Below the pieces are notes generated by a model. It was not told the origin of the DNA and made no database searches. It was given only the letters and a program-made list of their open reading frames with translations. This document shows positions 147 to 59,838 of a stretch of DNA of 64,000 nucleotides, one piece after another (the first letter of the stretch is position 1; each line of letters starts with the position of its first letter). A program made the translations under genes and the position numbers. The stretch is from an uncultured Clostridia bacterium (lineage in GTDB: Bacteria > Bacillota > Clostridia > Christensenellales > UBA1242): contig CALVML010000002.1 of assembly GCA_944345705.1 (NCBI GenBank), positions 19,992-83,991 of the forward strand. The letters run 5' to 3'.

Positions 147-2165
147 TCAAACTTCTACTCCCGCAGGAGATTTTGGCGAAAATGTACCATTTATACCGTT
201 TTTATAGATCTTTTCTATATAATTTTGCTTTTCATAAAATCTATTTGCAATATTTTTGAAATGTTTAATGTCACTTTCAGTAACATCATCACTTAGTACC
301 ACAACATCCGATATATTAGAACTATAAATATATTCAGTAAACATTCCGCTTAGGTTTGATGCAAAGAATGAATTTTGAATTTGTGATGAGAAAATGTTAT
401 ATCCCTGATACAAATTAGTATTTGATGGCAAACCATACAGATAGCAAAGAGTAGGCAGTATGTCGTAAGTATTGCAAAAATCACTTACAAAATAGCTTTC
501 ACCATTTACATACTTTGGACTATAGAAGATCATAGGAATATTGTTTATATAGGTATTGCTACTATTCGATTTTTCAATTCCCTTAATCTTGTAACAAAGA
601 TCACTATAATATGAATTATGATCTGCGAAAAGCAAGATTGAAGTATCATCCGCCCTTCCGCGCATCTCCAGTTCTTGAATTAAATTTTCAACAGTCTTAT
701 CAAGATCAATCATTGCAGCTTTATAATTTTTAAATAGCGTTAAATCATGTTCATTTGTAGGCAAGATGTAATCAGTGTTTTCTGTAAACCACTTTACAAA
801 TTCGTCATAATTCTGCTCAAATAATTGATAATACTCATTGAGATCTGAAGTTTGGCTATCATAAGGACCATGAGTAGAAAGCGTTGCTATAAAAGTGAAA
901 AATCTATCGGTATCAGGGATAATATAATCCATAACATTAGAAGTAAAATCAAGATCTGGGAACCAGTCGCCGAAATAGTTGTAATCATACGATCCTGTAT
1001 AGTCTTCATAACTAATAAAATTGTCAAAGCCAATCCCATCAATGCCATGTGTGACATTTCTATCATAGAAACCTTCATTGTTTGCATGTACATAGGTTGT
1101 AGAAACGGTCCCCCCCCCACAAGATTTGAAGATGTTTGGCAGTGAATAGTCAAAAGTGTAACCATTGTAGTAGGCATCTACAATTAGTGAATCTTTAGGC
1201 ATACTGCCATTTAAAACAATTCCTTCACTGATGTTTGTTCTATTTCTAGCATAAAAATTGTCAAATACGACTGCATTATCGCCATAAACCATATTCCAAA
1301 GAGTTGGAGTGTTGATTGGATCTATAGCATACCAATCTAGACTTTCACATAGCACAACAATCAAATTGTCACCATATAAAGGCGCATTAGTATTCCCCTC
1401 AACATATCCACTATCTATAAAATCTTGATAAGACTTATATTCATCTTCATCTATTGAATTTCCAAAAATTAGATTTAGCACACTTTTAGTATAAAAACCA
1501 TAGTGACCAAATTTCTTAAAGGCTTCAGTTTTGAATTGGAAATTGTCCCAAAGATATTCGTCACTCGTTTCAATCTCGGTGTCAGCACTTGTTGCCTGTA
1601 TTAAATTTGAAGACTGAATTTGAAACATAGTGAAACCAAAACATTCAGCCAAAATGAATACTGCCAAAATTAAATATGGAGTTGAGAAATTTTTAATTTT
1701 TATAGTTGTTTTATTATATTTTACAACTAAGATTGAAATTGTTACCATAATCGCAAATACAGCAACATTGAGAGCCACTCCCTTCCAATCGATGAAATCA
1801 ACCGTAATCGCTGTTGTGGCTTCAGCACCGAGTTTGAGAAGGTCGAACGATAGAATATCGCCAAAGATATAATACATAGTTGAATTGACAATATTCATAA
1901 AAAATTGTATGGTCAAAAATAGATAATAAAGTATTTGCATAGCAATCTTATTGTAAGAAACATAGATTACCCCTGCAATCATGACAATTATCGCAAGATC
2001 AAATAGAAAATAAGTTGGAAGTCCCATTAGTCTTCCTTGCGAATTAGTAAAACCTAAATACAAAAAATTTACCAGTTCTAAAATTATAGCAAAGACTATA
2101 AAAAGACATGGCAATACTAATCTATTACTACTTAATGCTTTTACTTTTGTTTCACTCTTTTCCAT
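147..2165 (-). CDS. LTA synthase (LtaS) family membrane sulfatase-fold phosphoglycerol transferase
   Basis: About five N-terminal TM helices precede an extracellular alkaline-phosphatase/sulfatase-fold domain with motifs RTNISEG, LSTHGPY and LFADHNSYY. The ORF-track start at 2201 is TTG. I prefer the ATG at 2165 (MEKSETKV...), which has no SD. The CDS contains a G9 tract at 1110-1118. Confidence 0.85.
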   Translation of the reverse strand: MEKSETKVKALSSNRLVLPCLFIVFAIILELVNFLYLGFTNSQGRLMGLPTYFLFDLAIIVMIAGVIYVSYNKIAMQILYYLFLTIQFFMNIVNSTMYYIFGDILSFDLLKLGAEATTAITVDFIDWKGVALNVAVFAIMVTISILVVKYNKTTIKIKNFSTPYLILAVFILAECFGFTMFQIQSSNLIQATSADTEIETSDEYLWDNFQFKTEAFKKFGHYGFYTKSVLNLIFGNSIDEDEYKSYQDFIDSGYVEGNTNAPLYGDNLIVVLCESLDWYAIDPINTPTLWNMVYGDNAVVFDNFYARNRTNISEGIVLNGSMPKDSLIVDAYYNGYTFDYSLPNIFKSCGGGTVSTTYVHANNEGFYDRNVTHGIDGIGFDNFISYEDYTGSYDYNYFGDWFPDLDFTSNVMDYIIPDTDRFFTFIATLSTHGPYDSQTSDLNEYYQLFEQNYDEFVKWFTENTDYILPTNEHDLTLFKNYKAAMIDLDKTVENLIQELEMRGRADDTSILLFADHNSYYSDLCYKIKGIEKSNSSNTYINNIPMIFYSPKYVNGESYFVSDFCNTYDILPTLCYLYGLPSNTNLYQGYNIFSSQIQNSFFASNLSGMFTEYIYSSNISDVVVLSDDVTESDIKHFKNIANRFYEKQNYIEKIYKNGINGTFSPKSPAGVEV

Positions 2166-2659: not shown

Positions 2660-2713
2660 AAATAATTCCTCCTAACTATGATTATACTCACTTTTTAAAT
2701 AATGTCAAAAATT

Positions 2714-16786: not shown

Positions 16787-17095
16787 ATTATCCCCCCCCA
16801 TTACGTAGATAGTATAACACACAATAAAATGATTTTTGTTACATTATTGTGAAGATTAATCCACAAAATGTTCTAGTTTTCAAATAAAACAAATCATGAA
16901 AATATTAGAAATTCGCCAAATTTCTACAAAATTTTACTTAAATTTTATGCAATATTTGAATTTGTTGTTTGCAATTTTTTTGTAATTAAATTGAGAGTTG
17001 TTTTTTAAAATCAAAAACATTAAAAAATTTCCAATCTTCAATTTTATTGGAGATGGAAACTTTTTAAATTGAAAATTATTAAAAACATTTTACTA

Positions 17096-22357: not shown

Positions 22358-22386
22358 TTGACAAATTTGCCCTTTTGTCATATAAT
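22358..22386 (+). promoter_or_regulatory. Consensus promoter TTGACA-17-TATAAT
   Basis: -35 at 22358-22363, -10 at 22381-22386. The 7-bp inverted repeat TGACAAA/TTTGTCA overlaps the -35 hexamer and the 3' end of the spacer. It lies about 95 nt upstream of the ATG at 22482. Confidence 0.6.
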
Positions 22387-23198: not shown

Positions 23199-23218
23199 TA
23201 AAAAATTTAATATTATAA

Positions 23219-23253
23219 AATATCTCAAAGTATGAAAACTCTGAGATATTTTT
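23219..23253. terminator. Bidirectional terminator
   Basis: TATCTCA ... TGAGATA stem flanked by A and T runs, between convergent genes. Confidence 0.6.
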
Positions 23254-23288
23254 GTATAACCTTTTCTTTACAAAAGATTAATATCTTT

Positions 23289-25448
23289 TTAATACTTACT
23301 AGCATAAACAGCATATCCATTTTCTGAATTTTTATATTCATAATTATTTTTAATAGTATTATTCAAAACACCTTGCAATTCTTCAGGAATTCTAAGCGTG
23401 TTTACAACGTAAAATAATCCACCAAAATCAAAATAAGACTCATCTGCATTTGCAATTAATGGCTCACTTTCAATTGTAAGATCTCTTAATACGACGCCAT
23501 TATTGACAAAAGCTTCTTCTCCAATACTTTCAACGTCCTTCGGTATAGTGATTTTAGCTAATTCGTCACAATTTTTAAACGCATAAGCTCCAATAGTTTG
23601 CAGTTTTGATCCTTCTTCAAATTTTATTTCTTTTATAGACAACCAATAACCATCCTCAGTCATCAAATCAGAAGGCTGAGCAAACGCATAGTCTCCAATG
23701 CTTACTACACTTGCTGGTATTGTAATTGTTTCCAGTTTATTACATCCATAAAAAGTATAGTCTCCTATTGATTCAAGTTGAGAATTCGGTTCAAAAATCA
23801 CCTCTTTTAAGTTACTGATCATCTGAGGATATGGGTCTGGAATAACAGAACCACGACCTAGTAAATTAATACAAGATTCAGGATAATATGATGAAACAGA
23901 AAATGCACCATCCATATTTTTAACGCTTTGCGGTATTGTAATACTTTGTAAACTTTCACACCCAATGAATACACGACCATAAATAATATGACAATTGTCA
24001 TTTATTATGAAACTAGTGATCGACGATTTATCTCCATTAACTCCAACTAACATGAAATAAGGATTTGATGAATCACCAAGATATTTTCCGTATCCATCTA
24101 TGGTACCTTGCAAGTTTGAACAACTATCGAAGATTATAGATCCTAGTTTTTTAATTGTTGATGGTATATTGATTGACTGTAATGCATAACAATCTGCAAA
24201 TGCAGCATCATCTATTTCTTCTATATTTGTAGGTATATTTATAATTTCTATTCTTTTACAATAAGAAAATGCTTGTACACCAATTCTTTTCAGTGTTGAT
24301 GGCAATACTAAGGTTTGCAGATTTGCTTGACATGCGAAAGCTCTGTCATCAATCGTTTCCACTTTGGAATCTTGCGAAAATGTAACACTAATTAGTGGTG
24401 CTCCGTCTATATATCCATCGCTTGTGAACTGGCGAAAAGAGTCCTGACCAACTGTAATTATGTTTGTTCCCTCTTTCTCTACTATATAATCAACAGAATT
24501 TACTGATACAGTATCATAATATGATGGAATAACAATATCTTTATCACTGCCTATATAATTTGTAAGAGTGTTACCATCAAAAGTAAAGTCATCAAGTCTG
24601 CGATATGTTCCACCATCTGCATAGATTGTTATGTTACTCTCTGGCATAGTGAACGAATATTGTCCGTCTATTTGATTGATAGTGATATGTTCTTCACTGC
24701 CATTTTCAATATAATAGAGTCCTGAAAAGAGTGTAACATAATCTTCAGTTACTGAATCTTGTCCATTTGCAGTGACGATAATCTGTTCACCATTTGTTGC
24801 GCTATCTTTGCTTACTGCACTCACTATTCCACTTGCTGATGGATCAATTGATACTGAATAGATTGCTGGAGCTTCTTCATCAGTGTTTTCAAAGGTGTAA
24901 TTTAGTGAAAAACCTTGAATAGATGCGCTTTTTGTTGGATCTTTGATATGGAATACTATTTGACAATCTACTGAGTTATCGCTTGAGCCGTCATTTGCTG
25001 AAATAATTGTGTTTGTCTTTACGTTTCCATCAATCTTTGCTTGCATGGTCATATTGTTCATTTGAGTATAACTTGTTTCCAATGCCATCTTTAGATTGCT
25101 CTCTGTATGATTGTTGGTCACGCTAAATGATATTGTCACGTCTTCTAATCCATCGAATGTGATCTCTAAATTTTGCCATGTTGCTTTTTCTGTTGTTCCG
25201 TCTGTGGTAGGTGAAAGTACAATCTCTTGCATCTTGTTTTCACCTGCAACTGTTCCATTAGTTAATATACCTTGTGAGATAGTCGCTTGGACATCTGTTG
25301 CTTGGAATGATATATTTCCGCCGATATTCATATCAAACTTCTTGATAGCAAGTGTAACCGATACCGCTGTAGTGATAAGTAAAAGTAATGTAAGCAAGAT
25401 ATTGCATACAATCATTACTGATTTATTCTTTATCTTTTGATCTTTCAC
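23289..25448 (-). CDS. Membrane-anchored surface protein with a shared N-terminal domain and BspA-type leucine-rich repeats
   Basis: GTG start with an AAAGGAG SD. There is an N-terminal TM/signal anchor. Residues ~30-200 are paralogous to the upstream gene. The C-terminal half has repeated IP.s...IG..AF..C..L units (e.g. ITIPASVVSIGDYAF, INIPSTIKKLGSIIFDSCSNLQ). Confidence 0.8.
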   Translation of the reverse strand: MKDQKIKNKSVMIVCNILLTLLLLITTAVSVTLAIKKFDMNIGGNISFQATDVQATISQGILTNGTVAGENKMQEIVLSPTTDGTTEKATWQNLEITFDGLEDVTISFSVTNNHTESNLKMALETSYTQMNNMTMQAKIDGNVKTNTIISANDGSSDNSVDCQIVFHIKDPTKSASIQGFSLNYTFENTDEEAPAIYSVSIDPSASGIVSAVSKDSATNGEQIIVTANGQDSVTEDYVTLFSGLYYIENGSEEHITINQIDGQYSFTMPESNITIYADGGTYRRLDDFTFDGNTLTNYIGSDKDIVIPSYYDTVSVNSVDYIVEKEGTNIITVGQDSFRQFTSDGYIDGAPLISVTFSQDSKVETIDDRAFACQANLQTLVLPSTLKRIGVQAFSYCKRIEIINIPTNIEEIDDAAFADCYALQSINIPSTIKKLGSIIFDSCSNLQGTIDGYGKYLGDSSNPYFMLVGVNGDKSSITSFIINDNCHIIYGRVFIGCESLQSITIPQSVKNMDGAFSVSSYYPESCINLLGRGSVIPDPYPQMISNLKEVIFEPNSQLESIGDYTFYGCNKLETITIPASVVSIGDYAFAQPSDLMTEDGYWLSIKEIKFEEGSKLQTIGAYAFKNCDELAKITIPKDVESIGEEAFVNNGVVLRDLTIESEPLIANADESYFDFGGLFYVVNTLRIPEELQGVLNNTIKNNYEYKNSENGYAVYASKY

Positions 25449-25466: not shown

Positions 25467-26054
25467 TTATTCGTTTACTTGTTCAAGGTCACATGTAAAT
25501 GTAAAGCCATCTATACTTGCGCTTTGTGTATTGTTTGTAATATGAAATTTGATCACACAATCTACTTCATTGTCGTTTGAGCCTGCGTCTGCTGGTATTG
25601 TCACTGTAGGAGTTGTTGATACATCAGTTCCATCTACTGTAGCTGTCATCTTCATATTATCTGCCGATGTTGAGTTTGTACTCAATGTCATCTTTAAGCC
25701 ACTTTCTGTATGGTTGTTTGTTACTGTAAATGTAATTGTCACATCTTGAAGTCCGTCAAATGTGATTACTAAGTTTTGCCATGTTGCCTTTTCTGTAGCA
25801 CCATCTGTCCCTGGTGTCAATGTAATTGCCTGCATCTTGCTTTCGCTGTCTGCTAGTGTTCCGTTTGCTACCACTCCTTTAGAGATAGTTGCCTGTACTT
25901 CACTTGCCTGGAAATTGATATTTCCACCTATATTCATATTAAACCTGTCTATGGCAAGTGTTATCGTCACAGCTGTAGTGACAAGTAAAAGTAGTGTGAG
26001 TAAAACGTTGCAAATTATCAAAAATGATTTTCTTTTTACATTTGAATCTTTCAT
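25467..26054 (-). CDS. 195-aa membrane-anchored protein, paralogue of the N-terminal domain of the downstream LRR protein
   Basis: ATG at 26054 with an AAAGGAGGG SD. It has a TM anchor and is ~60-65% identical by eye to residues 1-190 of the 23289-25448 product (NIGGNI.FQA..VQATIS.G...EKATWQNL.ITFDGL.DVTI.F.VTNNHTES.LKM). Confidence 0.75.
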   Translation of the reverse strand: MKDSNVKRKSFLIICNVLLTLLLLVTTAVTITLAIDRFNMNIGGNINFQASEVQATISKGVVANGTLADSESKMQAITLTPGTDGATEKATWQNLVITFDGLQDVTITFTVTNNHTESGLKMTLSTNSTSADNMKMTATVDGTDVSTTPTVTIPADAGSNDNEVDCVIKFHITNNTQSASIDGFTFTCDLEQVNE

Positions 26055-26106
26055 CTTTTGCCCTCCTTTTAAAAAATTCAATGTCAATCTTTTTTTGACA
26101 ACTTCT

Positions 26107-26134
26107 ATTATATCCCCCCCCCGCAAAATGTCAA
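26107..26134 (-). promoter_or_regulatory. Consensus promoter TTGACA-16-TATAAT with a G9 homopolymer in the spacer
   Basis: The minus strand reads TTGACATTTTGCGGGGGGGGGATATAAT. -35 at 26129-26134, G9 at 26114-26122, -10 at 26107-26112. Confidence 0.65.
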
Positions 26135-26332
26135 ATTTTTAAGCGTTTTTTTTCAAAAAACATTTGACATTTTGCGAAAATTTCTGAAAATATCGGAAAA
26201 TTAATGAGATTTTTAATAAAATTTTATACCATTTCACATTTTTTACGCATTTGTTTGAAAATATGTAAAATTTCTAAAACATAAAAATTAATGGAATTTA
26301 AAAAATTGATTTAGTTAACGTCGTTAGCTTCA

Positions 26333-26357
26333 ACAAAAAACAAGGCTGTAAAGCCTT
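26333..26357 (-). terminator. Rho-independent terminator of ndk
   Basis: CAAGGCT-(4-nt loop)-AGCCTTG followed by a U-run on the minus strand. Confidence 0.7.
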
Positions 26358-26397
26358 GCTTGATTACTAATATAGTTTTATAATAAATGAATATAAT

Positions 26398-26841
26398 TTA
26401 ATTTCTTATATAAATATACCATTTTAAAAGAGTGTAAAATATTTCAAGTTCGCTTGTCGCAGACTTTTCGCTGTCCGATGCATGCACTACATTTTGCGTA
26501 ATGCGCAGTGGTAGATTGAGCATCTTTGGCACTTCATATCTAATGGTGTGCGGATCAGGATTTTTAGTTGCTCCAACAAGTTTGCGTATCTTTGCAATTG
26601 CATCGTCACCCTGAACTTCCATTCCGTATGCCTTATCACTTGTGATATATTCTTCAAGTCCTTGATAAAAGTCTTTGCCGACATGTTCAGCATAGTGTTT
26701 GCGTGCAGAGAGTGCATCATATTTTATATATCCTTCTTTGACAACTTGCATACCAACTGATTGCAACTGGCTTTTTACATAATCTATCACTTGTGGATAG
26801 TTTGCAAATTCAGGCTTTACCATAACATAAGATTTTTCCAT
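26398..26841 (-). CDS. ndk: Nucleoside diphosphate kinase
   Basis: The N-terminus YVMVKPE and the active-site region NVVHASDS fit NDK. Length ~147 aa, with an AAGGGG SD. Confidence 0.8.
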   Translation of the reverse strand: MEKSYVMVKPEFANYPQVIDYVKSQLQSVGMQVVKEGYIKYDALSARKHYAEHVGKDFYQGLEEYITSDKAYGMEVQGDDAIAKIRKLVGATKNPDPHTIRYEVPKMLNLPLRITQNVVHASDSEKSATSELEIFYTLLKWYIYIRN

Positions 26842-28641: not shown

Positions 28642-31600
28642 CTACGCTCTAAAATCTTCAGCCCAGCCAACTAAGATCGAGCCAAGTTCATAGGATATAT
28701 TAACATTGCCTACATCATATCCATTGTCAAGAGTCGATATATCTCTATCTGCACCTGAAACAACAACTCTAAATACAATTTCGATATATTGGTCGTAAGT
28801 GTAGTTGGATCCATAGGTTATTCTACCATAACTATAATCAGTGTCATTTCGCTTGCTATAATCATTATTGATAGATACATCACCCGAACCGCTTCCGCCA
28901 AGTGGGTCAATCATAAACCAGATATAGTCTTTATTAAAACCTTTTTCACTACCATTGCTTACTGTTGTATTATCCACAGCTGCGCCACGTAGCGTTAAAA
29001 CAGGTGAATAATTTTCTTGTGGTGGTTCTGTTGCTGGAGTCCAAGAACTTAAGCTAGTGTAAATATTACCGCTATCTGTTCCACTCTCTTGTAATCTTCT
29101 GATAATTTGATCGGTTGTTGCACCACTCATACTAAAATATTTTCCTGTTACATAGTATCTATGGCTTACTCTATAATTTAAGGACTGATCGCCACCTTTC
29201 GAATCTTTACCCTTCTCAACTTGAGCAATGTAGTATTTATCTATAGTATAGTAACTGTTTGATCCCGACAATCGTTGTGCATTTTCTACATAGATATAGT
29301 CGTTTGTGGTAGTTTGAATTTGGAATGTGATCTTGGCTCCACTTGTCAAAACGTTACCATTATTCAATTTGCCCGTTGTATCATCACCTTGATTGTTATA
29401 AACAATATAATAGAATGTCGCATTGCCGTTGGCATTTGATATTGTTATTGTATCACCCAATTGGACACTTGTATTTAGAAGCGATGAGATTGAAAGATAT
29501 GTCGTCTTATCATAGGAATCATGGTTCGATCTTGATACTGCGACATCTGAAACAATTGTTGCATTTTTTCTTGTCAATGATATATTAAAACTTGCTGTAG
29601 ATTGCGCTTTGATCAATAGTTCAAGCGTATCATTTAAGTAAGTTGTTTCCAATGTTTGATTCAGTCCATCAGTCACAGTAAATGCTTTCTTTAAATCAAT
29701 ACTTTCACCATCTGCAACTACTTTAGCATGCTCAACTATCTTAACTTCTCGTACAACAGTTACAATAGTTTGAAGATCGGTATATTCTACAGTATCACCT
29801 TTCTCATATTTAAGTCTAATCACTAATATCATGTCTGTTTCTGTAGAATTTGCGTATACTTCACCAGCAAAAGAAGGTACTTGAATTGCTTGTTGTACTT
29901 CGCTTCCAAATTCATTCTCAAAAGTACCTGAGATGAAAGGTTCGCGAATTTTATCTTCTAGTCCATTGAAGAATGCATTTTGAGTAGTAGTTGTTGCAAG
30001 ATTATATTTATCAGATCCGCTTGTAAGTGTAATTTTTGTTGCATTTCCTATATTATTAAGTTTTATGTTGAATGTGGCAGTATTTGAATTAATAGTATCA
30101 TGTTCTGCAGTAATTCCTGATGGAAGTAGACTATCGATATTTGCGGTTATATCGTTTGCTATTTCATTTGTTATTGATGCAGTATCGGCTTTTATAGTTA
30201 GAGAAACAGTAGAGTTTGCTGTAACTGTCATTTTGTAAGTCTGTTCGTCTAGAGTATAACTTAAAGCAGTAGTGTCACTACCATAGTTTGTAGACCATGT
30301 ACCGCCAGTCTTTGTTGCTAAGATATAAGATGTGGCTTTTGGCATGATTGCAGTGCCTAGTGGTTCACCTGCTGGGTTGTCTTCTTCATTGATTGCATAG
30401 AACTTTGCACTATCCACAGTCACATATTTGAAACTTGGCGAATCGAACTTTTCTTTTGCTGCAGGTGTCCACATACCAACTTCACTATAATCAGTTTCTT
30501 TTTCTTCTGTTCTTGGATTATCACCTGTAATAGGTTTATATCCATTAGAACCGTTAGCTTGCAAATATTTATTATTAGTTGGTCCGCTCTCTGTCCCAGT
30601 TGTGCTTGTAGTATAATCTCTATCGAAGAAATATGTGCCTACATTAGCAATATTGATAAGTGGCACTTCTGCCGAGCTTTCAGGAGAAACAGGAGTACTT
30701 TGATTGATTGCATAACTGCCAGGATCACCTTCACCACTGCCTGCACTATATTCAATATTTAGCATAGTGTAAATAGAACCAATGTCAAAATAGTCAAGTT
30801 CATTCAAAACAGGATTTCCCCCTGTTGCAATGGATGGTTGAGTGTATTGAGATTTTAGACAGAAATAGAATTGATATTTATATCCGTAGACATCCACGCC
30901 TTCAATCATATAGTACTGATTGCCGAAGATGACTTCTTTGACAGCACTAAATGTGATTGCAGATGTTTGTCTAATGCCATCCTTAGTTTTATATGCATAT
31001 CCAGTTGTTGTTGATGCGGTAGGTGGTAGTGCTTGCCAATTCGTCATATTTGTACTATTGGCATACGCAAACTTTTGTTTAAAGTTTTCTTTATCATTTA
31101 TCGCTCTGCCTGATATCGTTTGATCAAGAGTAAGAGTTATATCAAAGTTGGTTGTAGAATATTCAGTGCTTGTATTATTTCCATATCGATGTTTGATTGA
31201 TAACTCTCCTTCGGTGCTATCAGTTGATGTCAATGTAAATGCTGAATAATTATTCTGTCCGTCAGCATTTGTTATTGAATATACATCAAATGGCTTATTA
31301 ACATTAGATACTATGCCTAAGCCATCTTCGCCAGTAGAAGTGGTCTTGTTATCAGTTGAACCGCTGAATGAAACGATATAGTCAGGCAAAACCTGATATA
31401 CCACATAGAATGTTTCACTATACCCGCCAGTTGAACTATAAGTAATCTTGCTGAGTACAAAGTCGCCATTTACTTGAGCGCCGAGTGGCATTACGCTTGC
31501 GTCATAGATTGCACCTGATGCATTTCTCATTGGAGAGTAAGCAATATATTCGTTTGTACCTTGATCATAGTTTGTTCCAGTATAAGTTGCATAATGTTTG

Positions 31601-34600
31601 AACTCGCTTATTCCATTCAATGTCATAAATGCTTCAAGAGAATTTTGCACTGAAGTATCAGGAACATTAGTTTTATAATCCGTACTATAATAGATAATTT
31701 CAAATTGAATATTTGCTTTGCCATCGCCAAAGTCAGATGCTGAAACATAGCTGTCATTGGTTGGATGTTTGATGCCAAGCTGTTGAACTATACTTGGGTA
31801 TTTTTCATTGACAGTAACATCTTCATGGTTGTTGACAGTAAATGCCTTTTCAACTTCAATGTCAATTCTTGGCATAAAGTAATATGTTGTTGACAATGAC
31901 TTTATGTAACTTTTGCCATTAATGCTTGTTAAAGTGTCATTAGTAGAATTTGTAGTTATCACAACTTGACTTACACCATTTGCAACTGAAATTCGACTAA
32001 TTGGAGTAAGAGATTTGATTTCGTTAATTGGATCTTGGGCAACAGTTGATGTTCCGTCACTAGTTAATGTCGTTGCGCTTACATCATGGTCTGTAATATA
32101 ATTACTAAAATAGCTATAATCAACTTTATTGCCACCATAGTAGAGTTGTATTCTGCTTACAAGTTGTTTTGTAGTAAAGAGTGCATTGTTTTCATCGACA
32201 TTTGTAATTGATTCAAGATCATCTGCTGTTATATTTACTGTGCTGGTTGTTACTGTACCTGATTCATTTGTAGTTCTTACTGTCTTTTGCATTAAGCCAG
32301 TTCCATCAAAACCTATGCCTTCGTTTTCAATGGCAGATGCTCTATAAGTGCCATAATATTCTTTACCATGCATTGAATAGCCTAAATCAAGATATTGATT
32401 TGAGCCTTGGTCTTCAAGACTGATATATTGAGCATAGGATGCATAGAATTTATCATCTGTGCCTTTGAATACAAGGTAGTAAGTGTCGTCGTTTGTAAGA
32501 GTGTTTGCAATCTGCACTTGGAACATTCTATCACCCGAGAAAATATTATTTGTATTTGTCTTGTCGACATAGATTGTTTCGTGAGTGACAGTTGAAGTTG
32601 TATCATCTCCATTATCTATAACGCCACTTGTTGCATACTTTGTATAGATTGCAGGAATTGTGAAGACGCTGTCAAGAAGTTCTATAGTATAAGTAGTAGT
32701 TGCCTCTCTATATGTAATCTCAAATATGATTACAGAGCGTTCTCCACTTGTAACATAATCGTTTTGATCGGTCTTATCGCCATCTGTATCATTGGTCTGA
32801 CTGTAAGTACCGCGTCTTAAGTATAGACCTTGACCTTGAGTTAAATTAATGGCATTTGATGCATAGTATTGTGTCGTTCCTATACCACCTTGACTATATT
32901 GCCAAATAGTTGCATTTTGAATTTCTTGAATAACCACACTTATTGTGTCAGCAGTCAACCCTTCAGTAATTTGCGATCCTTGTACAGTGCCATTTTTGTC
33001 AGCATTCAAATTGTTTTGGTATGCTGTAAATCTATTAGCATTTTCCCCCATATTATATATAGGATTTGAAAGGACGAAATCAGAAAGAGTATTGTTGATT
33101 ACCGAGCCATTTTCAAAGTATTCAATTTTAAGTTCGGTCTTACCGTCTGGCACTGGATAATTGGTGTCAACAGTGACTGCCTTATATACATTGAATGTAT
33201 AGGTAAATGTAATAGATTCGCTAGGCTTACTTGTTTCACCTGATGCACTAAATGCAAAGTGCATAGTAATATTGATTGATACCGATTGCATTTCAGATGA
33301 GATATCCTTGATTGTAACTGAAGTGCTTTTAGAATCTGCAAATATTCCCTCGCTTGTATCAACAGCTGAACTTGTAGAAGATGCAGAATAGGTAAGAGTA
33401 GTTCTATCATCTATTTCTTTATTTAAAGCGTTGATATATAAGTAATCTTTGTTCAGATTATTATTATCGATAAGATCATAATCATTTACCCCTGCAAGTG
33501 AAGATTCGCCTGTGATTGCTTGTACTGAAATATTTCTCTTAAAGGTCAAGGTATCAGTGAATGTAAAGGTGTTGTTATCATTAAACGTGATCGTGAAATC
33601 AAAGGTCACCGTCTTGTCAGATACGATATCTGCAACAACGAACTTGTTGCCTTCAATTTTGACAAATCTATGATCATTATTATTAGCACTTCGCATTTCT
33701 GCTGTAACAGTGTAGTCTGTGGCTTCATCATTATTTAATTTTATATCATAAACTTTACTAAAATTGATATCTTGTCCGCCAACAAGGTTGCTTGCGACTT
33801 CGACAGGGTTGTCGCCTTCCGTCATTTTACGAGCATAGCTTGCATTTGCTTTGATATTAATGCGCAAGGTTGCAAGATAGCCATACTGCGTATAGACAGA
33901 GAATTTTATTGTTGTGTCCTTTGAAATATAGTCTTTAAGTGTAAGTTTGAATTGATATGGAGAAAGTCCCTTATCATCAATATAAGAATGAGTGTTGTAA
34001 GCATAACTTTCAAAATCAACGTCTTCATTTCCGTCTACGAGTTTGATTTGAAGAAGATCTGAAACGACTGTACCTGTTGTCGTTTCTTGTCCAGCATCTG
34101 AATTGGATACAAGTTGTACTGTGAGAGTCTGCTCTCTTGGATTATCTGCAGTGTATGCATTTTCAAGTTCCCATGTATAGACGCCGTCATAAACGCTTTG
34201 AACATTGCCTTCATTTGTTGTAAATCTTGCATTGTAACTGCTATTGTTTTCATCATTTAAAACAATAGTATAATACTGCTCTGCTCCATAGATTGAGCGC
34301 TTATATTTTTGTTCGAGTGAAGTGTCACTTTCATAGGTACGCTTGATTACTATCTCTATTCTTTCACTTGTCTTTACCACATAGTCAAAAGTTGATCCTT
34401 CGATCACATTGCCATTGACATTATAGAATGTGATATCTTCTGCCCATTGCTCAGGGAATGTATATGGATCTTGTCCACCTACCTTCACGCTTTCAATAAC
34501 ATTTGTAGAAACAAGGTTTGCAAAGATTGCTCTATTTACAGAAGAAGTTCCTGATGCATCTTGCTTGCTTATAAATTCAGCAACAGCCTTTAAGTCTTCA

Positions 34601-37600
34601 CTGTCTGTATAAATACCACCAGTAAATGATAAAGTCAAAGATGAGCCATCATAGATATAGCATGAGCCAGAGCGAACGATAAGTTCAACACTCTCAATAT
34701 TGATATTAGTTGCATTTTCACTGAGTATGTCAGACAATTGAAGATATAGATAACTATTTATATTATTACCAATATTAATAGCGCAATCGCTTGTAATATC
34801 GTCTAAGATAACCATTTGATCGGCAAAAGATTTTGGTTCATCATTTTCAATATAATTTCCGCTAACTTTAAAAGCAAGCGATACTTCACTGCTAGAGCGA
34901 ACATCAACAACAAGAATACCAATATTGCTACTCAACATCTTGCTGACATTGAAACGAGAGAACCCTTCATTCAAAGTAGTTTCATCATAGATCTTGTCAA
35001 GATCAAATGTCTGTCGAGAATTTTGGTCTACTCTTATATGTTCTTCGCCCTCTTCGCCGTAATTTGTATAGGCATAAGTTGACGCTTCGACATTGATATC
35101 AGGAGTGATCTTAAGCAAGTAATAGAATATTTGATATCTTCCATTATAATTGATATTATATGATAGTCCTAAATAGAAGTTTTCATATAGAGTGTCATTT
35201 GTAAGATGGTTAAGGTCGAGATAGCCGTTGTTACTATCAATACCCTTAATTATAGATTTATTTGTAAGGTTTGTGCCATCTGTTACTGTTGGATAATATG
35301 TAATAGTTGGAGTAACTGAATAGCCACCATCTCGTATAGGCCTAATAAGTCCATTTTCGCCAGTAGAATTTTCGTAGTAGCTGACTTCTTTTATTATTTG
35401 AGTAGCTTGACCTGCAGTAATTTCATTATATATGCCTTGTTTTAAAAGTTCGCTTGGATCAGTAAGAGCAGTTTCTAGCGTGCGATTGTCTTCTACTCCA
35501 CTATTATATTCTACAAAATTGTAGCCTATTGCAGAATTGATCAAAGGAACATACATGATGGCTTTTGCGTTGGTACTACCAGTTTCGCTTCCTTGATTGA
35601 AGTATAATACAAGATATGAGTTTTCGTTGCCTAGTCCTCCAAGAAGTTGATTTTGGCTTCTGAGAGTGAATGTGTTTTGATTTTCTCCCGTGCTATAATA
35701 TGTATTTGCAGTGTCTGCATTTCTTATATACATTGTATAACTGCTGTCAAAATAATTATTATTATCCGATCTAGAGTTTGGCAAGGTGTATGCACTTGTA
35801 TCATATACAAGCATGATATACTCAACTCCATCAACTATTTGAGTGGTAGTATTATATGAGACATTATCTTTACTTATTTGAATTTGAGATGCAATATATT
35901 GATATATAGTTTGATCTTCTGTATTATACAGTTCAATATATACATCAACAGAACCTAGTGCGTTTCCATTAAGCATCAACGAGAGTTTTGTTGCATAACT
36001 TGTTGTATTATATTCAAATATAAAAGCCGATGAATTTAAAAGCTCTACATTGCTTCCATTGATTGTCAAATAATCTTCAAATTCACCACTAAAGTCTATA
36101 TTTTCTATAAGTGAACCATCGTGACGCTTGTATTGAATGAAATCTGTCCATTGTGGTGTTGAGCCTGTATTCAAAATGTAGAAAGTGTCAGTACCTGTTG
36201 CTAGATTGTCTAGATCAAGGTCACGCAAGATGATGAATGTAAGAGTATAACTTATTGCATACTGATTGTTGCCTTCTGGCTGGAATACTACTGAGAACTG
36301 TTTGTAATCGGTATCCCAGAAGTCATAGAACCTAATTGTCGCATTGCCTTCTTCATCAACAACCATTTTTCCAACTGCACTTCCTGTATATTGAGTTTTT
36401 AAGACATATTGTCCAGAACTTGGCTCAATATAATATGTACCTACTGTATAAAGACTTCCAAAACTTGACTGTTTACCTGCATTATTATTATTTGTCACCA
36501 TATTGGAAATTTGAGTGCCTTCACTATCACCATCTTCATCAGTTGCATAGATAAATCTTGATGAATCTGTAGTAGAACCATAGGTAGTTGCACCAGATAT
36601 TGCAATATTAGGCAATATTGTCATATTTAAAGTGATATTTACTACGCCTGAATTTGCTTCATCTGAAATAGTCAACTGTACTGATCTAGATTGATAGAAA
36701 TTTTTGTTTATCTGAATACTTGTAATCACCTTGCCCTGCAAGTTGCTTCTAATAGTGCTTGCATCAGTACCAGTTTGAATTTTTTGACCATTATTGTATA
36801 CAGTAAGCATTCCGTCTGTACCAAATAGGTCTACAATTGCTGAGCCTAAGTTTTCAAGATAAGAAGTCGAAAGTGTAAATTGTATCTTAGTAAACTGAAC
36901 ACCATTAACTTCAAGTCTAACTTGATTTGCAAGAATAATTGTATTATTAGAAGCGCCATATTTTGACATAGCGACAGATATCGTGCTTTCCGATTCTTCT
37001 TGATTTGTACCTTCGGTAATACTTGAATTAGGATCTAAATTGCTGTTAAAGAATACATCAGTAATTCCTGTTGAAGTAACATTGAATTTCATTTTAATAA
37101 CATCATCTGCCGATCCTGTTTCTACATTCCCATCAAGTGAAACAATGTCGATTACAACAATGCTTCCATTGCCATTTATGAATTGAATAGTCTGTCCTTG
37201 TACTGCTACAACATGACTGCTTCCTTCAAGCAATCTAAAACTCCACTCGCCTGCTAAGGTGTCTGTGCGACCTACTTGGTCAGTGATAACAATGTTTGCA
37301 AAGTTTTCGCCAAAGAAGCGGTTGAATAATGCTGTCAATGCGCTTTGTCCATCTTGTGCCTCTATTGGTGTTCCACCTAAAGAGATATTGAGAACTGTTT
37401 CGCCACTGTCAGCGTCAAGTGTTTGATTGACTGTGATTTCGCTGTCGCCTGTTAAATAGATTTGATCGTTAGGATCATATTCAAGAGTGATTGACTTTGC
37501 AATAGGATCATAGATCATAACTGTTTGATTTTCAAGAAGATCGCTTACTCTAAAGCCATTTCCGCCACCCCAAACAATATTGTTTTCTTCCTGAGTGTTA

Positions 37601-39933
37601 TAGGTAAGAGTAAATGAATTTACAATAACACCTAAGTCATCATTTTGAGTAACGATAGTAGTTGTTGGATTAAGTTGAAGTTCAAAAGTGAAAACGCCAT
37701 ATCCTTCTTCTTGATTTATTGAGAAGTCGCTTCTTACTAGGATAAAATTACCTTCGCTTACACTTTGAGTGATCGTTGAAATAACCTGATTATAACTATC
37801 GTAGATTGTTAGTGTCATAGAGCCAAGTTGTTCGCTAAACACTTCAACAGAGTCGCTGTTTACAATGAATGAAATTGAGAATGTACCATTATTGCCAAGA
37901 TCGATATAGTACATTTGATTATCTTCGTTGACAACAAACTGTCCCATTGACATGGTTGCCCCTATCACAGAGTCTTGACTCAACTCTTTCTTTACATCTA
38001 CCGAAATCGCCTCACTCATTCTTGCAATGCGATATAGGCCGTTTTCACTAACAACAGGAACGCCGTCCTGCACCATGATTGTGGCAAAATATAGATCAAA
38101 TAGTCCTGTATTATAAACTGTCAAACTTGTGCTTTCAATGCAATATAGGTAAAGTTCTTCAAGTCCAACACTGTAAAGTCCGCTTCGCTCGCTATTAAAT
38201 CCGCCATTTCCTAAAATTGAAATAACAGTGCTTGTGTCTACACCTTCACCAAAGTATGCAAATAGATATTTAGGCTTTTTATATATATTTTGTTCAGGCA
38301 CATACATATATTGACTTAAATCTTCGGTCTGTGAAATGATTGAGCCGTCACCCGAATAGTCGAGCATTATATCTAAACTTTCAATACCACTCCAATAAAC
38401 ATTTTGCTCTGTATGTTCTGTGACATTCATAGTTGATTCAAATAGAAGTGGAGCGCCATTTGATTGATATAAGCCTTTTTCGCCATTTTCAAGTTCAATC
38501 AAAAGACCTACTTTTACCTGTATAGTAGCAACCTGAGATGAAATCACACTCCAATATGAATTACCCTTATTTGAAAGCCCTTCAGAATAAGGTCTATAAT
38601 AGGTTTGTCCATCAATGACAACCGCGTCTCCGCCACTCACTTGCAAGAAAGCATCATTGCCAAGTGTTGGATCTATAGTCTGTCCTTGTCTATCAGTATA
38701 TGAGAAAGATAAAAGGACATTAGAAAGCATTGAAGGAACCGCCATTAAATTTGAATCTTGCACATAAGCGCCAACATTGATGCTTCCGCTTACCTGATTT
38801 GATACATAAATTCTTGTCGTATAGTTTTGAATTATATCAAAGGAATTTGCAAGACTGATATTGAAAGCACTTACATCTGCAGTGCCGATATCAATGCGAG
38901 TGCTAGTTAAGTATGCACTGTCTTGACTAGATGCAAGCATAGACACCATTTGAGTATAATAGTTTTCGTTCGTCACGCCAGACTCGGCAAGTTCCTGCTC
39001 AGCGATAAGTTGCGATTTCGCGTCTTTGAATACATAAGCATTGAGTTGTACGCCATCAACAATATCGTCACCTGCAACAAAATGCATGGTAGTGCTTGTG
39101 TCATAGACAGGCGTTACATTGTCAGAAGAAGATTGATAGAAAGCAAGTTTTTTTCTAACATTCTCACTTGTTATATTGCCCTGCTCAGAATTAACATCAT
39201 CGCTATACATATATTCGCTCTTTGCAGGAATAAATTTTGTTTGAATTGTGAATGTTTCACCGATTACAATTTTTTCAGCAGGATTGCCATCATCATTGAG
39301 AATGATTGCCTCAGTAGAATAAACAGGTACATCGACTGCAACTTTAACATTTATAGCACTTGCTTGAGATTGAGAGTATGCACTTCTTGCAGTGATTGTA
39401 GCAATGCCACCTGCAATCCAGTCAACCCGCTGTCCATTTTCCCAAATATATTCGCCATTTTCGTCTTTAAGATGTTCGGGGATAAGTTCAACAGTGAAAG
39501 GAGTGTTGAGTTGTACAACACTAGGCACGCGAATGACGCCATTTGATATGTATTGTCCATCAGCCGAAGTTCTTGAATTGCCATCAAGCGAAAGATTTAC
39601 AGAGCGTTGATTGACAACTGCCTCGGTGTCAGTAGATGTGATAGTAAGAGTAAAGTTGTCGGTAACCTCTAGTTGACCGTTGGCTTGATTGTAAAGTTCT
39701 AGATAACTATCATCTTGCACAAAGGTTATCCCTGAAGGATAGACTGGAGTTTCGCCGGTCTGCCCACCCCTTGAAAGATAAACGCCGAGCAAAGTTGCGC
39801 CCGCAATCAATCCAATACCGAGAATGACAGAAACAATGGTCATCCAAAGCTTCCACTTAGGCTTTATCTCGCCTGTGTCGACCTTCTCTTTATTTTTAAC
39901 CTTTTTGACTTTTTTCTCTTCTTTCTTACTCAT
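28642..39933 (-). CDS. Giant (3763 aa) N-terminally anchored extracellular protein, family unknown
   Basis: An uninterrupted 11.3-kb ORF with TAGGAG SD. A Lys-rich cytoplasmic head and a single TM (WMTIVSVILGIGLIAGATLLGVYL) are followed by ~3700 aa rich in T/S/N/Y/G/V. There is no LPXTG or other C-terminal sorting signal and no obvious internal tandem repeats by eye. Confidence 0.85.
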   Translation of the reverse strand: MSKKEEKKVKKVKNKEKVDTGEIKPKWKLWMTIVSVILGIGLIAGATLLGVYLSRGGQTGETPVYPSGITFVQDDSYLELYNQANGQLEVTDNFTLTITSTDTEAVVNQRSVNLSLDGNSRTSADGQYISNGVIRVPSVVQLNTPFTVELIPEHLKDENGEYIWENGQRVDWIAGGIATITARSAYSQSQASAINVKVAVDVPVYSTEAIILNDDGNPAEKIVIGETFTIQTKFIPAKSEYMYSDDVNSEQGNITSENVRKKLAFYQSSSDNVTPVYDTSTTMHFVAGDDIVDGVQLNAYVFKDAKSQLIAEQELAESGVTNENYYTQMVSMLASSQDSAYLTSTRIDIGTADVSAFNISLANSFDIIQNYTTRIYVSNQVSGSINVGAYVQDSNLMAVPSMLSNVLLSFSYTDRQGQTIDPTLGNDAFLQVSGGDAVVIDGQTYYRPYSEGLSNKGNSYWSVISSQVATIQVKVGLLIELENGEKGLYQSNGAPLLFESTMNVTEHTEQNVYWSGIESLDIMLDYSGDGSIISQTEDLSQYMYVPEQNIYKKPKYLFAYFGEGVDTSTVISILGNGGFNSERSGLYSVGLEELYLYCIESTSLTVYNTGLFDLYFATIMVQDGVPVVSENGLYRIARMSEAISVDVKKELSQDSVIGATMSMGQFVVNEDNQMYYIDLGNNGTFSISFIVNSDSVEVFSEQLGSMTLTIYDSYNQVISTITQSVSEGNFILVRSDFSINQEEGYGVFTFELQLNPTTTIVTQNDDLGVIVNSFTLTYNTQEENNIVWGGGNGFRVSDLLENQTVMIYDPIAKSITLEYDPNDQIYLTGDSEITVNQTLDADSGETVLNISLGGTPIEAQDGQSALTALFNRFFGENFANIVITDQVGRTDTLAGEWSFRLLEGSSHVVAVQGQTIQFINGNGSIVVIDIVSLDGNVETGSADDVIKMKFNVTSTGITDVFFNSNLDPNSSITEGTNQEESESTISVAMSKYGASNNTIILANQVRLEVNGVQFTKIQFTLSTSYLENLGSAIVDLFGTDGMLTVYNNGQKIQTGTDASTIRSNLQGKVITSIQINKNFYQSRSVQLTISDEANSGVVNITLNMTILPNIAISGATTYGSTTDSSRFIYATDEDGDSEGTQISNMVTNNNNAGKQSSFGSLYTVGTYYIEPSSGQYVLKTQYTGSAVGKMVVDEEGNATIRFYDFWDTDYKQFSVVFQPEGNNQYAISYTLTFIILRDLDLDNLATGTDTFYILNTGSTPQWTDFIQYKRHDGSLIENIDFSGEFEDYLTINGSNVELLNSSAFIFEYNTTSYATKLSLMLNGNALGSVDVYIELYNTEDQTIYQYIASQIQISKDNVSYNTTTQIVDGVEYIMLVYDTSAYTLPNSRSDNNNYFDSSYTMYIRNADTANTYYSTGENQNTFTLRSQNQLLGGLGNENSYLVLYFNQGSETGSTNAKAIMYVPLINSAIGYNFVEYNSGVEDNRTLETALTDPSELLKQGIYNEITAGQATQIIKEVSYYENSTGENGLIRPIRDGGYSVTPTITYYPTVTDGTNLTNKSIIKGIDSNNGYLDLNHLTNDTLYENFYLGLSYNINYNGRYQIFYYLLKITPDINVEASTYAYTNYGEEGEEHIRVDQNSRQTFDLDKIYDETTLNEGFSRFNVSKMLSSNIGILVVDVRSSSEVSLAFKVSGNYIENDEPKSFADQMVILDDITSDCAINIGNNINSYLYLQLSDILSENATNINIESVELIVRSGSCYIYDGSSLTLSFTGGIYTDSEDLKAVAEFISKQDASGTSSVNRAIFANLVSTNVIESVKVGGQDPYTFPEQWAEDITFYNVNGNVIEGSTFDYVVKTSERIEIVIKRTYESDTSLEQKYKRSIYGAEQYYTIVLNDENNSSYNARFTTNEGNVQSVYDGVYTWELENAYTADNPREQTLTVQLVSNSDAGQETTTGTVVSDLLQIKLVDGNEDVDFESYAYNTHSYIDDKGLSPYQFKLTLKDYISKDTTIKFSVYTQYGYLATLRINIKANASYARKMTEGDNPVEVASNLVGGQDINFSKVYDIKLNNDEATDYTVTAEMRSANNNDHRFVKIEGNKFVVADIVSDKTVTFDFTITFNDNNTFTFTDTLTFKRNISVQAITGESSLAGVNDYDLIDNNNLNKDYLYINALNKEIDDRTTLTYSASSTSSAVDTSEGIFADSKSTSVTIKDISSEMQSVSINITMHFAFSASGETSKPSESITFTYTFNVYKAVTVDTNYPVPDGKTELKIEYFENGSVINNTLSDFVLSNPIYNMGENANRFTAYQNNLNADKNGTVQGSQITEGLTADTISVVIQEIQNATIWQYSQGGIGTTQYYASNAINLTQGQGLYLRRGTYSQTNDTDGDKTDQNDYVTSGERSVIIFEITYREATTTYTIELLDSVFTIPAIYTKYATSGVIDNGDDTTSTVTHETIYVDKTNTNNIFSGDRMFQVQIANTLTNDDTYYLVFKGTDDKFYASYAQYISLEDQGSNQYLDLGYSMHGKEYYGTYRASAIENEGIGFDGTGLMQKTVRTTNESGTVTTSTVNITADDLESITNVDENNALFTTKQLVSRIQLYYGGNKVDYSYFSNYITDHDVSATTLTSDGTSTVAQDPINEIKSLTPISRISVANGVSQVVITTNSTNDTLTSINGKSYIKSLSTTYYFMPRIDIEVEKAFTVNNHEDVTVNEKYPSIVQQLGIKHPTNDSYVSASDFGDGKANIQFEIIYYSTDYKTNVPDTSVQNSLEAFMTLNGISEFKHYATYTGTNYDQGTNEYIAYSPMRNASGAIYDASVMPLGAQVNGDFVLSKITYSSTGGYSETFYVVYQVLPDYIVSFSGSTDNKTTSTGEDGLGIVSNVNKPFDVYSITNADGQNNYSAFTLTSTDSTEGELSIKHRYGNNTSTEYSTTNFDITLTLDQTISGRAINDKENFKQKFAYANSTNMTNWQALPPTASTTTGYAYKTKDGIRQTSAITFSAVKEVIFGNQYYMIEGVDVYGYKYQFYFCLKSQYTQPSIATGGNPVLNELDYFDIGSIYTMLNIEYSAGSGEGDPGSYAINQSTPVSPESSAEVPLINIANVGTYFFDRDYTTSTTGTESGPTNNKYLQANGSNGYKPITGDNPRTEEKETDYSEVGMWTPAAKEKFDSPSFKYVTVDSAKFYAINEEDNPAGEPLGTAIMPKATSYILATKTGGTWSTNYGSDTTALSYTLDEQTYKMTVTANSTVSLTIKADTASITNEIANDITANIDSLLPSGITAEHDTINSNTATFNIKLNNIGNATKITLTSGSDKYNLATTTTQNAFFNGLEDKIREPFISGTFENEFGSEVQQAIQVPSFAGEVYANSTETDMILVIRLKYEKGDTVEYTDLQTIVTVVREVKIVEHAKVVADGESIDLKKAFTVTDGLNQTLETTYLNDTLELLIKAQSTASFNISLTRKNATIVSDVAVSRSNHDSYDKTTYLSISSLLNTSVQLGDTITISNANGNATFYYIVYNNQGDDTTGKLNNGNVLTSGAKITFQIQTTTNDYIYVENAQRLSGSNSYYTIDKYYIAQVEKGKDSKGGDQSLNYRVSHRYYVTGKYFSMSGATTDQIIRRLQESGTDSGNIYTSLSSWTPATEPPQENYSPVLTLRGAAVDNTTVSNGSEKGFNKDYIWFMIDPLGGSGSGDVSINNDYSKRNDTDYSYGRITYGSNYTYDQYIEIVFRVVVSGADRDISTLDNGYDVGNVNISYELGSILVGWAEDFRA

Positions 39934-45368: not shown

Positions 45369-45397
45369 ATTATATTCCTTTTAACAATTTTTGTCAA
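45369..45397 (-). promoter_or_regulatory. Consensus promoter TTGACA-17-TATAAT of the glyQS leader
   Basis: -35 at 45392-45397, -10 at 45369-45374. Confidence 0.7.
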
Positions 45398-58300: not shown

Positions 58301-59838
58301 CTCAACTTGCTTTATATACTGAACAATTAAAAAGGTTTGAAAAGTTAGAAGAATATAGACAAGAAAAAGCTGATATAGAAAAACCTATTAGAGATGAAAT
58401 AGAACAGAAAGAACTTCAAATTGCTAAGTTAGAAGAAGAGCAAAAAAGACTTAATCAAGAAAATGCCAACCTAACTCAACAAAAAGTCAACACATCATAT
58501 ATAGTTCAAGACAACGAAGAAAAACTTCATCAGGCACAGGAATATGCAGCAACCTCTACCCCTGCTAAAGAACATATTAAAGGAAATTTCACCGATGAGA
58601 TGTATTTTGAATTACAAGACAAACTTAGTGAATTGCAGAAAGAAAAAAATCGTCTTGTCGAAAACATCAAAAAATATTTCTATGATATGCAGATTCTTGA
58701 ACTTCTTAAAGAAGCAAAAGTTGGCACATTTGACACATTCTTTGGCATGATGGAAGAATATGACGATGTAAGCAAAAAGCTTAATGAAACAAGCGATAAA
58801 CTTACACAAGAAAGTGCAAACAAAGAGCAACTTGATCAAGTAGTTGAAAAACAAACAGAAGTTGTTACTAAGATCAAATCAGAAATCATCGATAAGCTTG
58901 ATGACATGCTTGCACAAAAACATGGCTTATGGCTTGTAGAAACTGATATTAAAAACAGCGAAAACCCTATTGCAAAATACAGCGATCAATTACAAGAAGA
59001 GAAAGAAATTCTTTCAAAACTTCAAGCAGAATATAAAAAAGCAGTCAATGCTTTCACTGACAAATATAGTTTTGCATTGCACAACGAAGATACAGCAAAT
59101 GAAGCATATAGTACAGATGACTGGAAAAAGATTGAAGAGTTGAAAAATCAAGTCAACAGTCAAAAAGCAAAAATAAATAAACTTGAAGGTAAATTTAATA
59201 AAGCTCGTGAAACTAAAACAGCTCTTGAAAATAGACGCAATGAAATCATTGAAACAATCAATGCTGAAAAAGCTATGTTGACACAAAAAATTATAGCAGT
59301 TGACCTTACTTCAATCAAAAATGAAAATCAAAGAGCAACTATTGATTTGAATGAAAATAAACTTGCATACTTGACAATGCTTCATGAACTTGCAAAACTT
59401 GCTGCTGCATTATCTAAGAAAGAGAGTACTATATCAGAAGATTTGATATATAAATATACACTTGATAGTGACAAATATTCTGACGAGTTTACAAGACTTG
59501 ATGTATATAACGCCCTACTTGAAATAGCAAAAGCAAACTATAGTAAAGAAGTACTTGACGAAATCAAGGGTGAAACTAAAAAGTCTGTAGTTAATGGTAT
59601 GCTTGAGATCCTTAAAAATCCAGAAAAATATGTCATTTCTGATGATTTACAAGCAATTGTAAATAGCGAATCACTTCAAAAACTTGTTCCTATTACACAG
59701 GCAGTCAAGAAAGCCGAAATAAGAAAACAAAAAGAAGAAGAAAAAGCAAAAAGAAAGACAAAAAAAGAGAAGACTGCGAAAGAACCTAAGGTTAAAAAAG
59801 CAGAAGAAAAAGGATCTGACGACGGAAGAAGCATTTAA
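55399..59838 (+). CDS. 1479-aa coiled-coil protein with a Pro-rich tandem-repeat linker and a Lys-rich tail
   Basis: TAGGAGG SD. No signal peptide or TM helix. A ~470-aa N-terminal region is followed by about 104 aa of ([12 protein letters not shown])n, ~880 aa of heptad-like E/K/Q/L sequence containing a 90-aa duplication, and a [15 protein letters not shown] tail. Confidence 0.8.
56845..57156 (+). repeat. In-frame Pro-rich tandem repeats (36/42-bp units)
   Basis: CCTGAACCTGAGCCTCAACCACAGCCGGATCCACAGCCACAA occurs twice in perfect tandem (from 56938 and 56980), flanked by diverged units. Confidence 0.9.

Follow-up and report, generated by a model that had tools for sequence, protein, structure and literature searches.

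A perfect consensus promoter with a long G homopolymer in its spacer precedes two genes for putative surface proteins in the 64,000-nt stretch of DNA that was analysed (hereafter, the window), and slippage within this homopolymer probably switches the expression of the two genes as an operon. The promoter was read on the minus strand from 26134 to 26107 as TTGACA-ttttgc-GGGGGGGGG-a-TATAAT, and its hexamers matched the consensus at 12 of 12 positions. The spacer between the -35 and -10 hexamers was 16 nt long (26113-26128), and nine of these 16 nt belonged to a single G run, which appears as C9 on the plus strand (26114-26122). The promoter region comprised the following features:

26398..26841: ndk, with a Pfam NDK match
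26338..26361, minus strand: intrinsic terminator belonging to ndk, the gene upstream (terminator scan; -12.5 kcal/mol, z = -3.2), with a U-run after it
26129..26134, minus strand: -35 hexamer TTGACA, invariant in 11 of 11 homologous promoters read as DNA
26114..26122, minus strand: G9 homopolymer, the proposed hypermutable element, with natural alleles and an indel hotspot
26107..26112, minus strand: -10 hexamer TATAAT; TATAATAGA is invariant in relatives
26061..26069, minus strand: Shine-Dalgarno sequence AAAGGAGGG of gene 1

The promoter was located after the ndk terminator, which isolates it from read-through, and 46 nt upstream of the Shine-Dalgarno sequence and ATG of gene 1. It was the sole strong match in a promoter scan from the ndk terminator to the ATG at 26054. 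Perfect promoters of the form TTGACA-N16-18-TATAAT were found four times in the window, compared with 0.12 ± 0.33 in shuffled sequences, and therefore canonical promoters are clearly in use in this organism. Only the promoter at 26107-26134 carried a homopolymer in its spacer; the other perfect (12/12) promoters were located at 2681-2708 (minus strand), 22358-22386 (plus strand), and 45369-45397 (minus strand). From their match to the consensus, the TTGACA and TATAAT hexamers would be expected to form a working promoter of the sigma-A/sigma-70 type, and the transcription start is predicted at ~26099-26102 from the usual distance to the -10 hexamer.

The genes downstream of the promoter and the structure that follows them were as follows:

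25467..26054, minus strand: gene 1 (195 aa), starting at ATG 26054, encoding a TM helix at the N-terminus and, beyond it, an all-beta ectodomain
23289..25448, minus strand: gene 2 (719 aa), starting at GTG 25448, 18 nt after the gene 1 stop and with its own SD AAAGGAGA
23212..23260, minus strand: hairpin downstream of gene 2, with UUUUAU after it (-18.4 kcal/mol, z = -6.8)

The 195-aa protein matched no Pfam family and contained no LRR. Its AlphaFold2 model (pLDDT 77) placed a helix at residues 3-37 ahead of an all-beta sandwich, for which Foldseek retrieved only weak and generic beta-sandwich matches (CBM35, Epf, and FimG; TM-score <=0.41). A structure-based function for this protein was considered and dropped, as the matches were weak and generic (CBM35- or adhesin-like). 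The gene 2 product shares the TM anchor and N-domain of the gene 1 product and continues into BspA-type LRRs, which matched Pfam PF13306 (LRR_5, 'BspA type') in three stretches with E = 1.9e-49 and 167.2 bits against a cut-off of 27.7. Gene 1 was 60% identical in amino acids to the first ~195 residues of gene 2 (24876-25448), a similarity that points to partial duplication, in tandem, of the part nearest the promoter. Taken together, the TM anchor, the modelled beta-sandwich, and the LRR_5 repeats suggest that both products are membrane-anchored surface proteins.

No terminator was found between gene 1 and gene 2, and the strong hairpin with its U-run after gene 2, which lies between convergent genes, is probably the operon terminator. 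From this arrangement, we infer that the two genes are co-transcribed as a two-gene operon. Genes for MraW, UvrA, an LtaS-like enzyme, and a PBP that carries a PASTA domain are also present in the window, and this gene content corresponds to a walled, low-GC Firmicute type. The promoter had been pointed out in an earlier, sequence-only reading of the window, in which the perfect hexamers, the 16-nt spacer, and the C9 run at 26114-26122 were given with correct coordinates and numbers throughout. That reading had also identified a 195-aa membrane-anchored protein and, 18 bp further on, a 719-aa BspA-type LRR protein, and these identifications were right.

Homologous promoters were retrieved from independent metagenome assemblies by a DNA pattern scan and by exact-protein look-ups of family members. 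The homologous promoter was read as DNA in 11 contigs, one of which (L001) corresponds to the window (100% identical). The alleles of the spacer were as follows:

L001 (the window) and L007: ttttgc-G9-a, spacer of 16 nt
L003: ttttgc-A-G8-a, spacer of 16 nt
L005 and L006 (same ndk/LRR locus, ~97% identity, two different studies): ttttgc-G7-a, spacer of 14 nt
L008: ttttgta-G10, spacer of 17 nt
L012 and L013: ttttgta-G9, spacer of 16 nt
L014 and L016: ttttgc-G9, spacer of 15 nt
L009 (64% protein identity): ttttgc-G9, spacer of 15 nt

The G tract was thus present in 11 of 11 homologous promoters as G7, G8, G9, or G10, giving spacers of 14, 15, 16, and 17 nt, while both hexamers were invariant in all 11, and the blocks ATTTGACATTTTG and TATAATAGA were invariant in the alignment of relatives. 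Read as DNA, the tract persisted to a protein identity of 64% (L009), and protein extensions imply its presence at 63%. In other clades, the open reading frames were extended through the tract as MRGGD (G9 plus a, spacer of 16 nt), RGGGII (G10, spacer of 16 nt), and RGGEGII (interrupted tract, spacer of 19 nt); such gene-caller extensions reveal only those spacers that keep the extension in frame. A short Logan contig yielded an uncertain allele of ~11 nt. Across ~50 kb of related loci, the tract was the only G/C run of at least 7, and the promoter was absent from a distant paralog locus (L015, 41% identity). Pattern scans with the promoter flanks in metagenome, genome, and viral collections gave only L003 as a true relative; L002, L004, L033, and L034 matched by chance, lacking both a G tract and homology. 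Gene 1 and gene 2 were both intact in the G7 strains, which fits reversible silencing over decay.

Indels between close relatives were concentrated at the tract. The window and L005 (97% identical) differed by 105 substitutions over 4180 aligned bp and by only two indels, G9 to G7 in the tract and A8 to A7 in the run at 26146-26153. In a second clade, the tract was an indel site in two of four pairwise comparisons: L008 and L016 (2.68 kb) differed by three indels, one of which was at the tract, and of the two indels between L012 and L008 (0.9 kb), one fell at the tract and the other in the loop of the promoter's inverted repeat.

In the proposed mechanism, replication slippage would add or remove G residues and thereby change the distance between the -35 and -10 hexamers. 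In other organisms, sigma-70-type promoters are near-optimal with spacers of 16-17 nt, weak with 15 nt, and non-functional with 14 or 19 nt. At this locus, spacers of 16 and 17 nt would permit transcription, a spacer of 15 nt would be weak, and spacers of 14 nt or of at least 18 nt would be near off. On this view, transcription would depend on spacer length, and cells within a population would switch often and reversibly. The outcome would be heritable and reversible differences in expression from cell to cell, in the form of either on/off phase variation or 'volume control'. The recurrent tract changes in two clades are compatible with frequent and reversible switching; the tract differences across the assembly consensus sequences could be fixed strain differences.

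The window contained three G/C runs of at least 8 (C9 at 1110-1118, C8 at 16792-16799, and C9 at 26114-26122) and none of 6 or 7. The expected number of runs of at least 8 was 0.08 (order 0) or 0.06 (order 1), with a Poisson P(>=3) of ~1e-4, and all three runs read as poly-G on the coding (minus) strand. The two tracts outside the promoter were as follows:

16792..16799, minus strand: G8 directly 5' of ATG 16786, the start of an HTH_3 gene (536 aa)
1110..1118, minus strand: G9 within an LtaS/sulfatase-family ORF (147..2165), encoding Gly-Gly-Gly

The G8 tract is located where an SD for ATG 16786 would be, and ATG 16801, which uses its first G, is in frame with it. The tract served as a control and was identical in 13 of 13 contigs from the same studies as the promoter contigs; three of the 13 had been found via a protein form that sets no constraint on tract length. 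These assemblies are thus not just noisy in poly-G length. Two forms of the HTH protein (536 aa and 541 aa) were considered as tract-length alleles and ruled out, as G8 in all 13 contigs makes them a gene-caller artefact.

The G9 tract in the LtaS-like ORF was G10 in three independent assemblies (L017-L019), in which the gene was split into parts of 363 aa and ~259 aa. At this position, the tract was interrupted in some other strains (CGEGS) and missing from others (CDIDGS). The tract was ruled out as a mere code for conserved glycines because the GGG falls within a loop that varies, and only near-identical strains share it. From its alleles, it is likely a translational contingency locus in a cell-envelope enzyme. 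A truncation of the LtaS-like gene to 350 aa (P0213) was rejected as tract-mediated, since it starts upstream of the tract and in a strain type that has no tract. Two of the three G tracts within these 64 kb of genome therefore vary in length, namely those in the promoter and in the LtaS-like ORF.

The sequence-only reading had put forward the promoter tract as a candidate slipped-strand spacer switch, had roughly estimated that far fewer than one such run would be expected where three occur, and had suggested comparing the orthologous promoter in relatives. The computed expectation of 0.06-0.08 bears out the estimate. The comparison showed that the tract is not invariant, and the candidate switch gained support from tracts of G7-G10 and spacers of 14-17 nt between constant hexamers, with the indels concentrated at the tract.

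Similar alleles could also accumulate at an ordinary constitutive or regulated promoter with a mutable homopolymer, where length differences are neutral or slightly deleterious and no switch has evolved; we consider this unlikely. It would suit the predominance of the 16-nt spacer (5 of the 11 contigs read as DNA), which is not the 17-nt optimum, and the length-preserving nature of some changes (A plus G8 in L003 versus G9, and G10 versus G9 plus a in P0253 and P0258), which hints at some selection on length. It is also in line with the stable G8 tract, which shows that poly-G is not automatically variable here. However, G9 and G10 runs in DNA of 34% GC should be eroded by substitutions, and the tract was kept in every clade down to 63-64% identity, even where the adjacent spacer bases changed (gc, gta, and presence or absence of a). 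Moreover, the occurrence of four spacer lengths, including 14 nt with both genes intact, is hard to explain under purifying selection. We therefore retain the slippage switch as the preferred reading of the tract.

The promoter was also surrounded by conserved repeats, which the sequence-only reading had missed:

26162..26176, minus strand: left arm of an inverted repeat, CGCAAAATGTCAAAT (blastn self-match), at the start of the conserved module
26146..26153, minus strand: A8 run in the inverted-repeat loop, length-polymorphic
26122..26136, minus strand: right arm of the inverted repeat, ATTTGACATTTTGCG, which includes the -35 hexamer and whose last base is the first G of the tract
26082..26100, minus strand: palindrome TGTCAA-N7-TTGACA, at ~+1 to +19 of the predicted transcript

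The two arms form a perfect 15-bp inverted repeat, CGCAAAATGTCAAAT-N25-ATTTGACATTTTGCG (26176-26162 and 26136-26122), that encloses the -35 hexamer and abuts the G tract. Its core AAAATGTCAAA was invariant in 10 aligned relatives, and a core of 11-12 bp was kept in all relatives aligned. As a single strand, the segment 26118-26180 folded at -22 kcal/mol (z = -5.7). The A-run in the loop was A7 in L005 and L006 and A5-A6 in other clades, and a change in its length alters the spacing of the two arms. The downstream palindrome has its TTGACA sites at 26082-26087 (minus strand) and 26095-26100 (plus strand), with both halves conserved in relatives; its RNA fold was not significant (z = -0.6), and it is probably an operator. 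TTGACA/TGTCAA half-sites occurred four times within 88 bp, compared with ~0.14 expected, and all four were conserved. The most economical reading is that they would serve as operators for a hypothetical regulator, which would probably bind both palindromes, the pair bracketing the -35 hexamer and the one at ~+1 to +19. Stochastic and regulated control may accordingly be layered at this promoter.

Just upstream of the inverted repeat, ATTTTCAGAAATTTT at 26181-26195 (minus strand) resembles the CodY-box consensus, a weak lead in AT-rich DNA. The CodY-box consensus is AATTTTCWGAAAATT. The CodY-like core TCAGAAAT (TCAGAAAC in L012) was present in 8 of 10 aligned relatives.

These repeats raise the possibility that the G tract and the inverted repeats are mainly protein-binding or structural elements (an operator or a cruciform), with deterministic control by a regulator and tract length acting via helical phasing. 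The density and conservation of the half-sites, the perfect inverted repeat around the -35 hexamer with its single-strand fold, and the variable length of the A-run between the arms would all agree with such control. We nevertheless judge it improbable as the main explanation, because the half-sites were invariant only, with no covariation, and the cognate regulator is hypothetical, while known systems (nadA and sabA) pair a regulator with a repeat tract. Regulator binding would also be compatible with the spacer mechanism, since the tract is situated precisely between the two hexamers, both of them invariant and at consensus.

That the differences in tract length are sequencing or assembly artefacts at poly-G is highly implausible. 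The data consist throughout of consensus sequences from short-read metagenome assemblies, with coverage as low as 2.95x for L007 and 1.8x for L013, but two studies independently yielded an identical G7/A7 allele (L005, covered 11.6x, and L006), the G10 frameshift allele of the LtaS-like tract appeared in three assemblies, and the control G8 was the same in 13 contigs from the same studies.

The spacer switch may belong to a larger unit. The segment 26174-25483 of the window, which runs from the left inverted-repeat arm through the promoter and 5'UTR to where the N-terminal domain ends, recurred in L003 (6660-7351) over 692 bp at 97.7% identity, after which the two sequences diverged. In L003, the unit was fused to a different C-terminal region (~306 aa) in a different neighbourhood, with an NMT1-like gene downstream and a lone terminase-large-subunit gene ~3 kb upstream. 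This recurrence indicates that the promoter and the N-terminal domain behave as a unit common to several surface-protein genes, which had also escaped notice in the sequence-only reading. L009 carried two tandem family genes. L007 joined the window-type upstream side to the L003-type downstream side, and it may be an assembly chimera (2.95x) or else a recombinant. A phage association of the module was considered and set aside, as it was limited to the lone terminase of L003 and the protein family had no relatives in IMG/VR.

More tentatively, the unit could possibly be a portable phase-variable cassette common to several surface-protein loci and part of an SSR-based phasome together with the LtaS-like tract. 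The cassette would consist of an operator-flanked consensus promoter, the poly-G spacer, the 5'UTR palindrome, the TM anchor, and the beta-sandwich stalk domain, and it would perhaps be homogenised by gene conversion. Its C-terminal cargo would vary among stand-alone forms, ~306-aa forms, and BspA-LRR forms. Through such a phasome, a non-pathogenic lineage of uncultured, walled Firmicutes would vary its surface combinatorially, with stochastic control and control by a repressor in layers.

Promoter-spacer homopolymer switches are textbook examples of phase variation in Neisseria and Mycoplasma. In the original work on porA and opc, the tract reportedly lay in the promoter spacer, as a poly-G between the -35 and -10 hexamers in porA and as a poly-C in opc. 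The locus described here is like porA and opc of Neisseria meningitidis in that a G/C homopolymer lies within the spacer of a core promoter, upstream of a gene for an outer-surface protein. It differs from these genes of a Gram-negative pathogen in its host of a walled, low-GC Firmicute type, its perfect hexamers, its conserved palindromes, and its unrelated cargo family. In porA and opc, tract length sets the spacing and thereby graded expression, whereas at the present locus such an effect is a prediction from the sequence.

In the vlp genes of Mycoplasma hyorhinis, a poly-A between the -35 and -10 hexamers is an on/off switch, and the family combines a conserved 5' block (promoter, leader, and membrane-anchoring N-terminus) with differing external C-terminal parts. 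The sharing of 692 bp at 97.7% identity between the window and L003, followed by divergence, is similar. Unlike in vlp, the tract is poly-G and not poly-A, the products are TM-anchored and not lipoproteins, and the host has a cell wall; the family members are, as far as visible, at separate loci and not in a tandem array. To our knowledge, few promoter-spacer homopolymer switches have been documented in walled Firmicutes; work on phase variation in these bacteria deals mostly with invertible promoters.

The mechanism itself is already known; the host and the gene family are new. The literature searched, with incomplete coverage, contained no account of a poly-G in a promoter spacer, either for BspA-type proteins or for walled Firmicutes. 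The sequence-only reading had known of no such switch for BspA-like proteins, and this holds, in the literature searched, for the promoter-tract type; for SSR phase variation in general it does not, as this has been reported from metagenomic data for the BspA-like proteins of Candidatus Mycoplasma girerdii (PMC5476646). In that organism, CA repeats within or near genes lead to truncation by frameshift (PMC5476646), whereas the homopolymer described here lies in a promoter spacer and leaves the coding sequence untouched.

SSR phase variation has been defined in PhasomeIt (PMC5953494). Transcriptional SSRs of Neisseria give low, intermediate, and high expression, with repeat numbers that differ among isolates, and SSRs mutate at rates of >1e-5 per division (PMC6735796). 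In Neisseria nadA (TAAA repeats and the NadR repressor, as cited in PMC5953494) and in Helicobacter pylori sabA (poly-T and ArsR; PMC11162790), one promoter is subject to both a repeat tract and a regulator. As in nadA and sabA, the conserved TGTCAA/TTGACA palindromes suggest a layered arrangement of the tract with a hypothetical regulator. The nadA and sabA tracts are located upstream of the core promoter and change the phasing of distal elements, whereas the tract described here is inside the core spacer.

If the switch operates as proposed, an uncultured Firmicute known only from metagenomes would vary BspA-type and related surface proteins via SSR contingency loci, and its LtaS-like cell-envelope enzyme would probably be varied by an SSR as well. 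Tract length would then be a marker of surface-antigen states that can be counted in reads directly in metagenomes. The organism would also be another case for the question, asked in a 2025 review, of whether multi-locus phase-variable genomes are restricted to pathogens (PMC11868660).

Several other observations were made in the window. An Rfam scan found one tRNA only. A giant ORF of 3,763 aa (28642-39933, minus strand) is located immediately upstream of cls and ndk and had no Pfam match at E <= 1e-4. The 1,270-aa protein encoded at 4137-7949 (minus strand) combines DUF4011, an AAA_11/AAA_12 helicase, and a C-terminal REase_MTES_1575 nuclease, and it has a defence-like look. The 1,479-aa ORF at 55399-59838 (plus strand), which gave an acidic, repetitive PARP match below threshold (29 bits against a cut-off of 100), may encode another repetitive surface protein.
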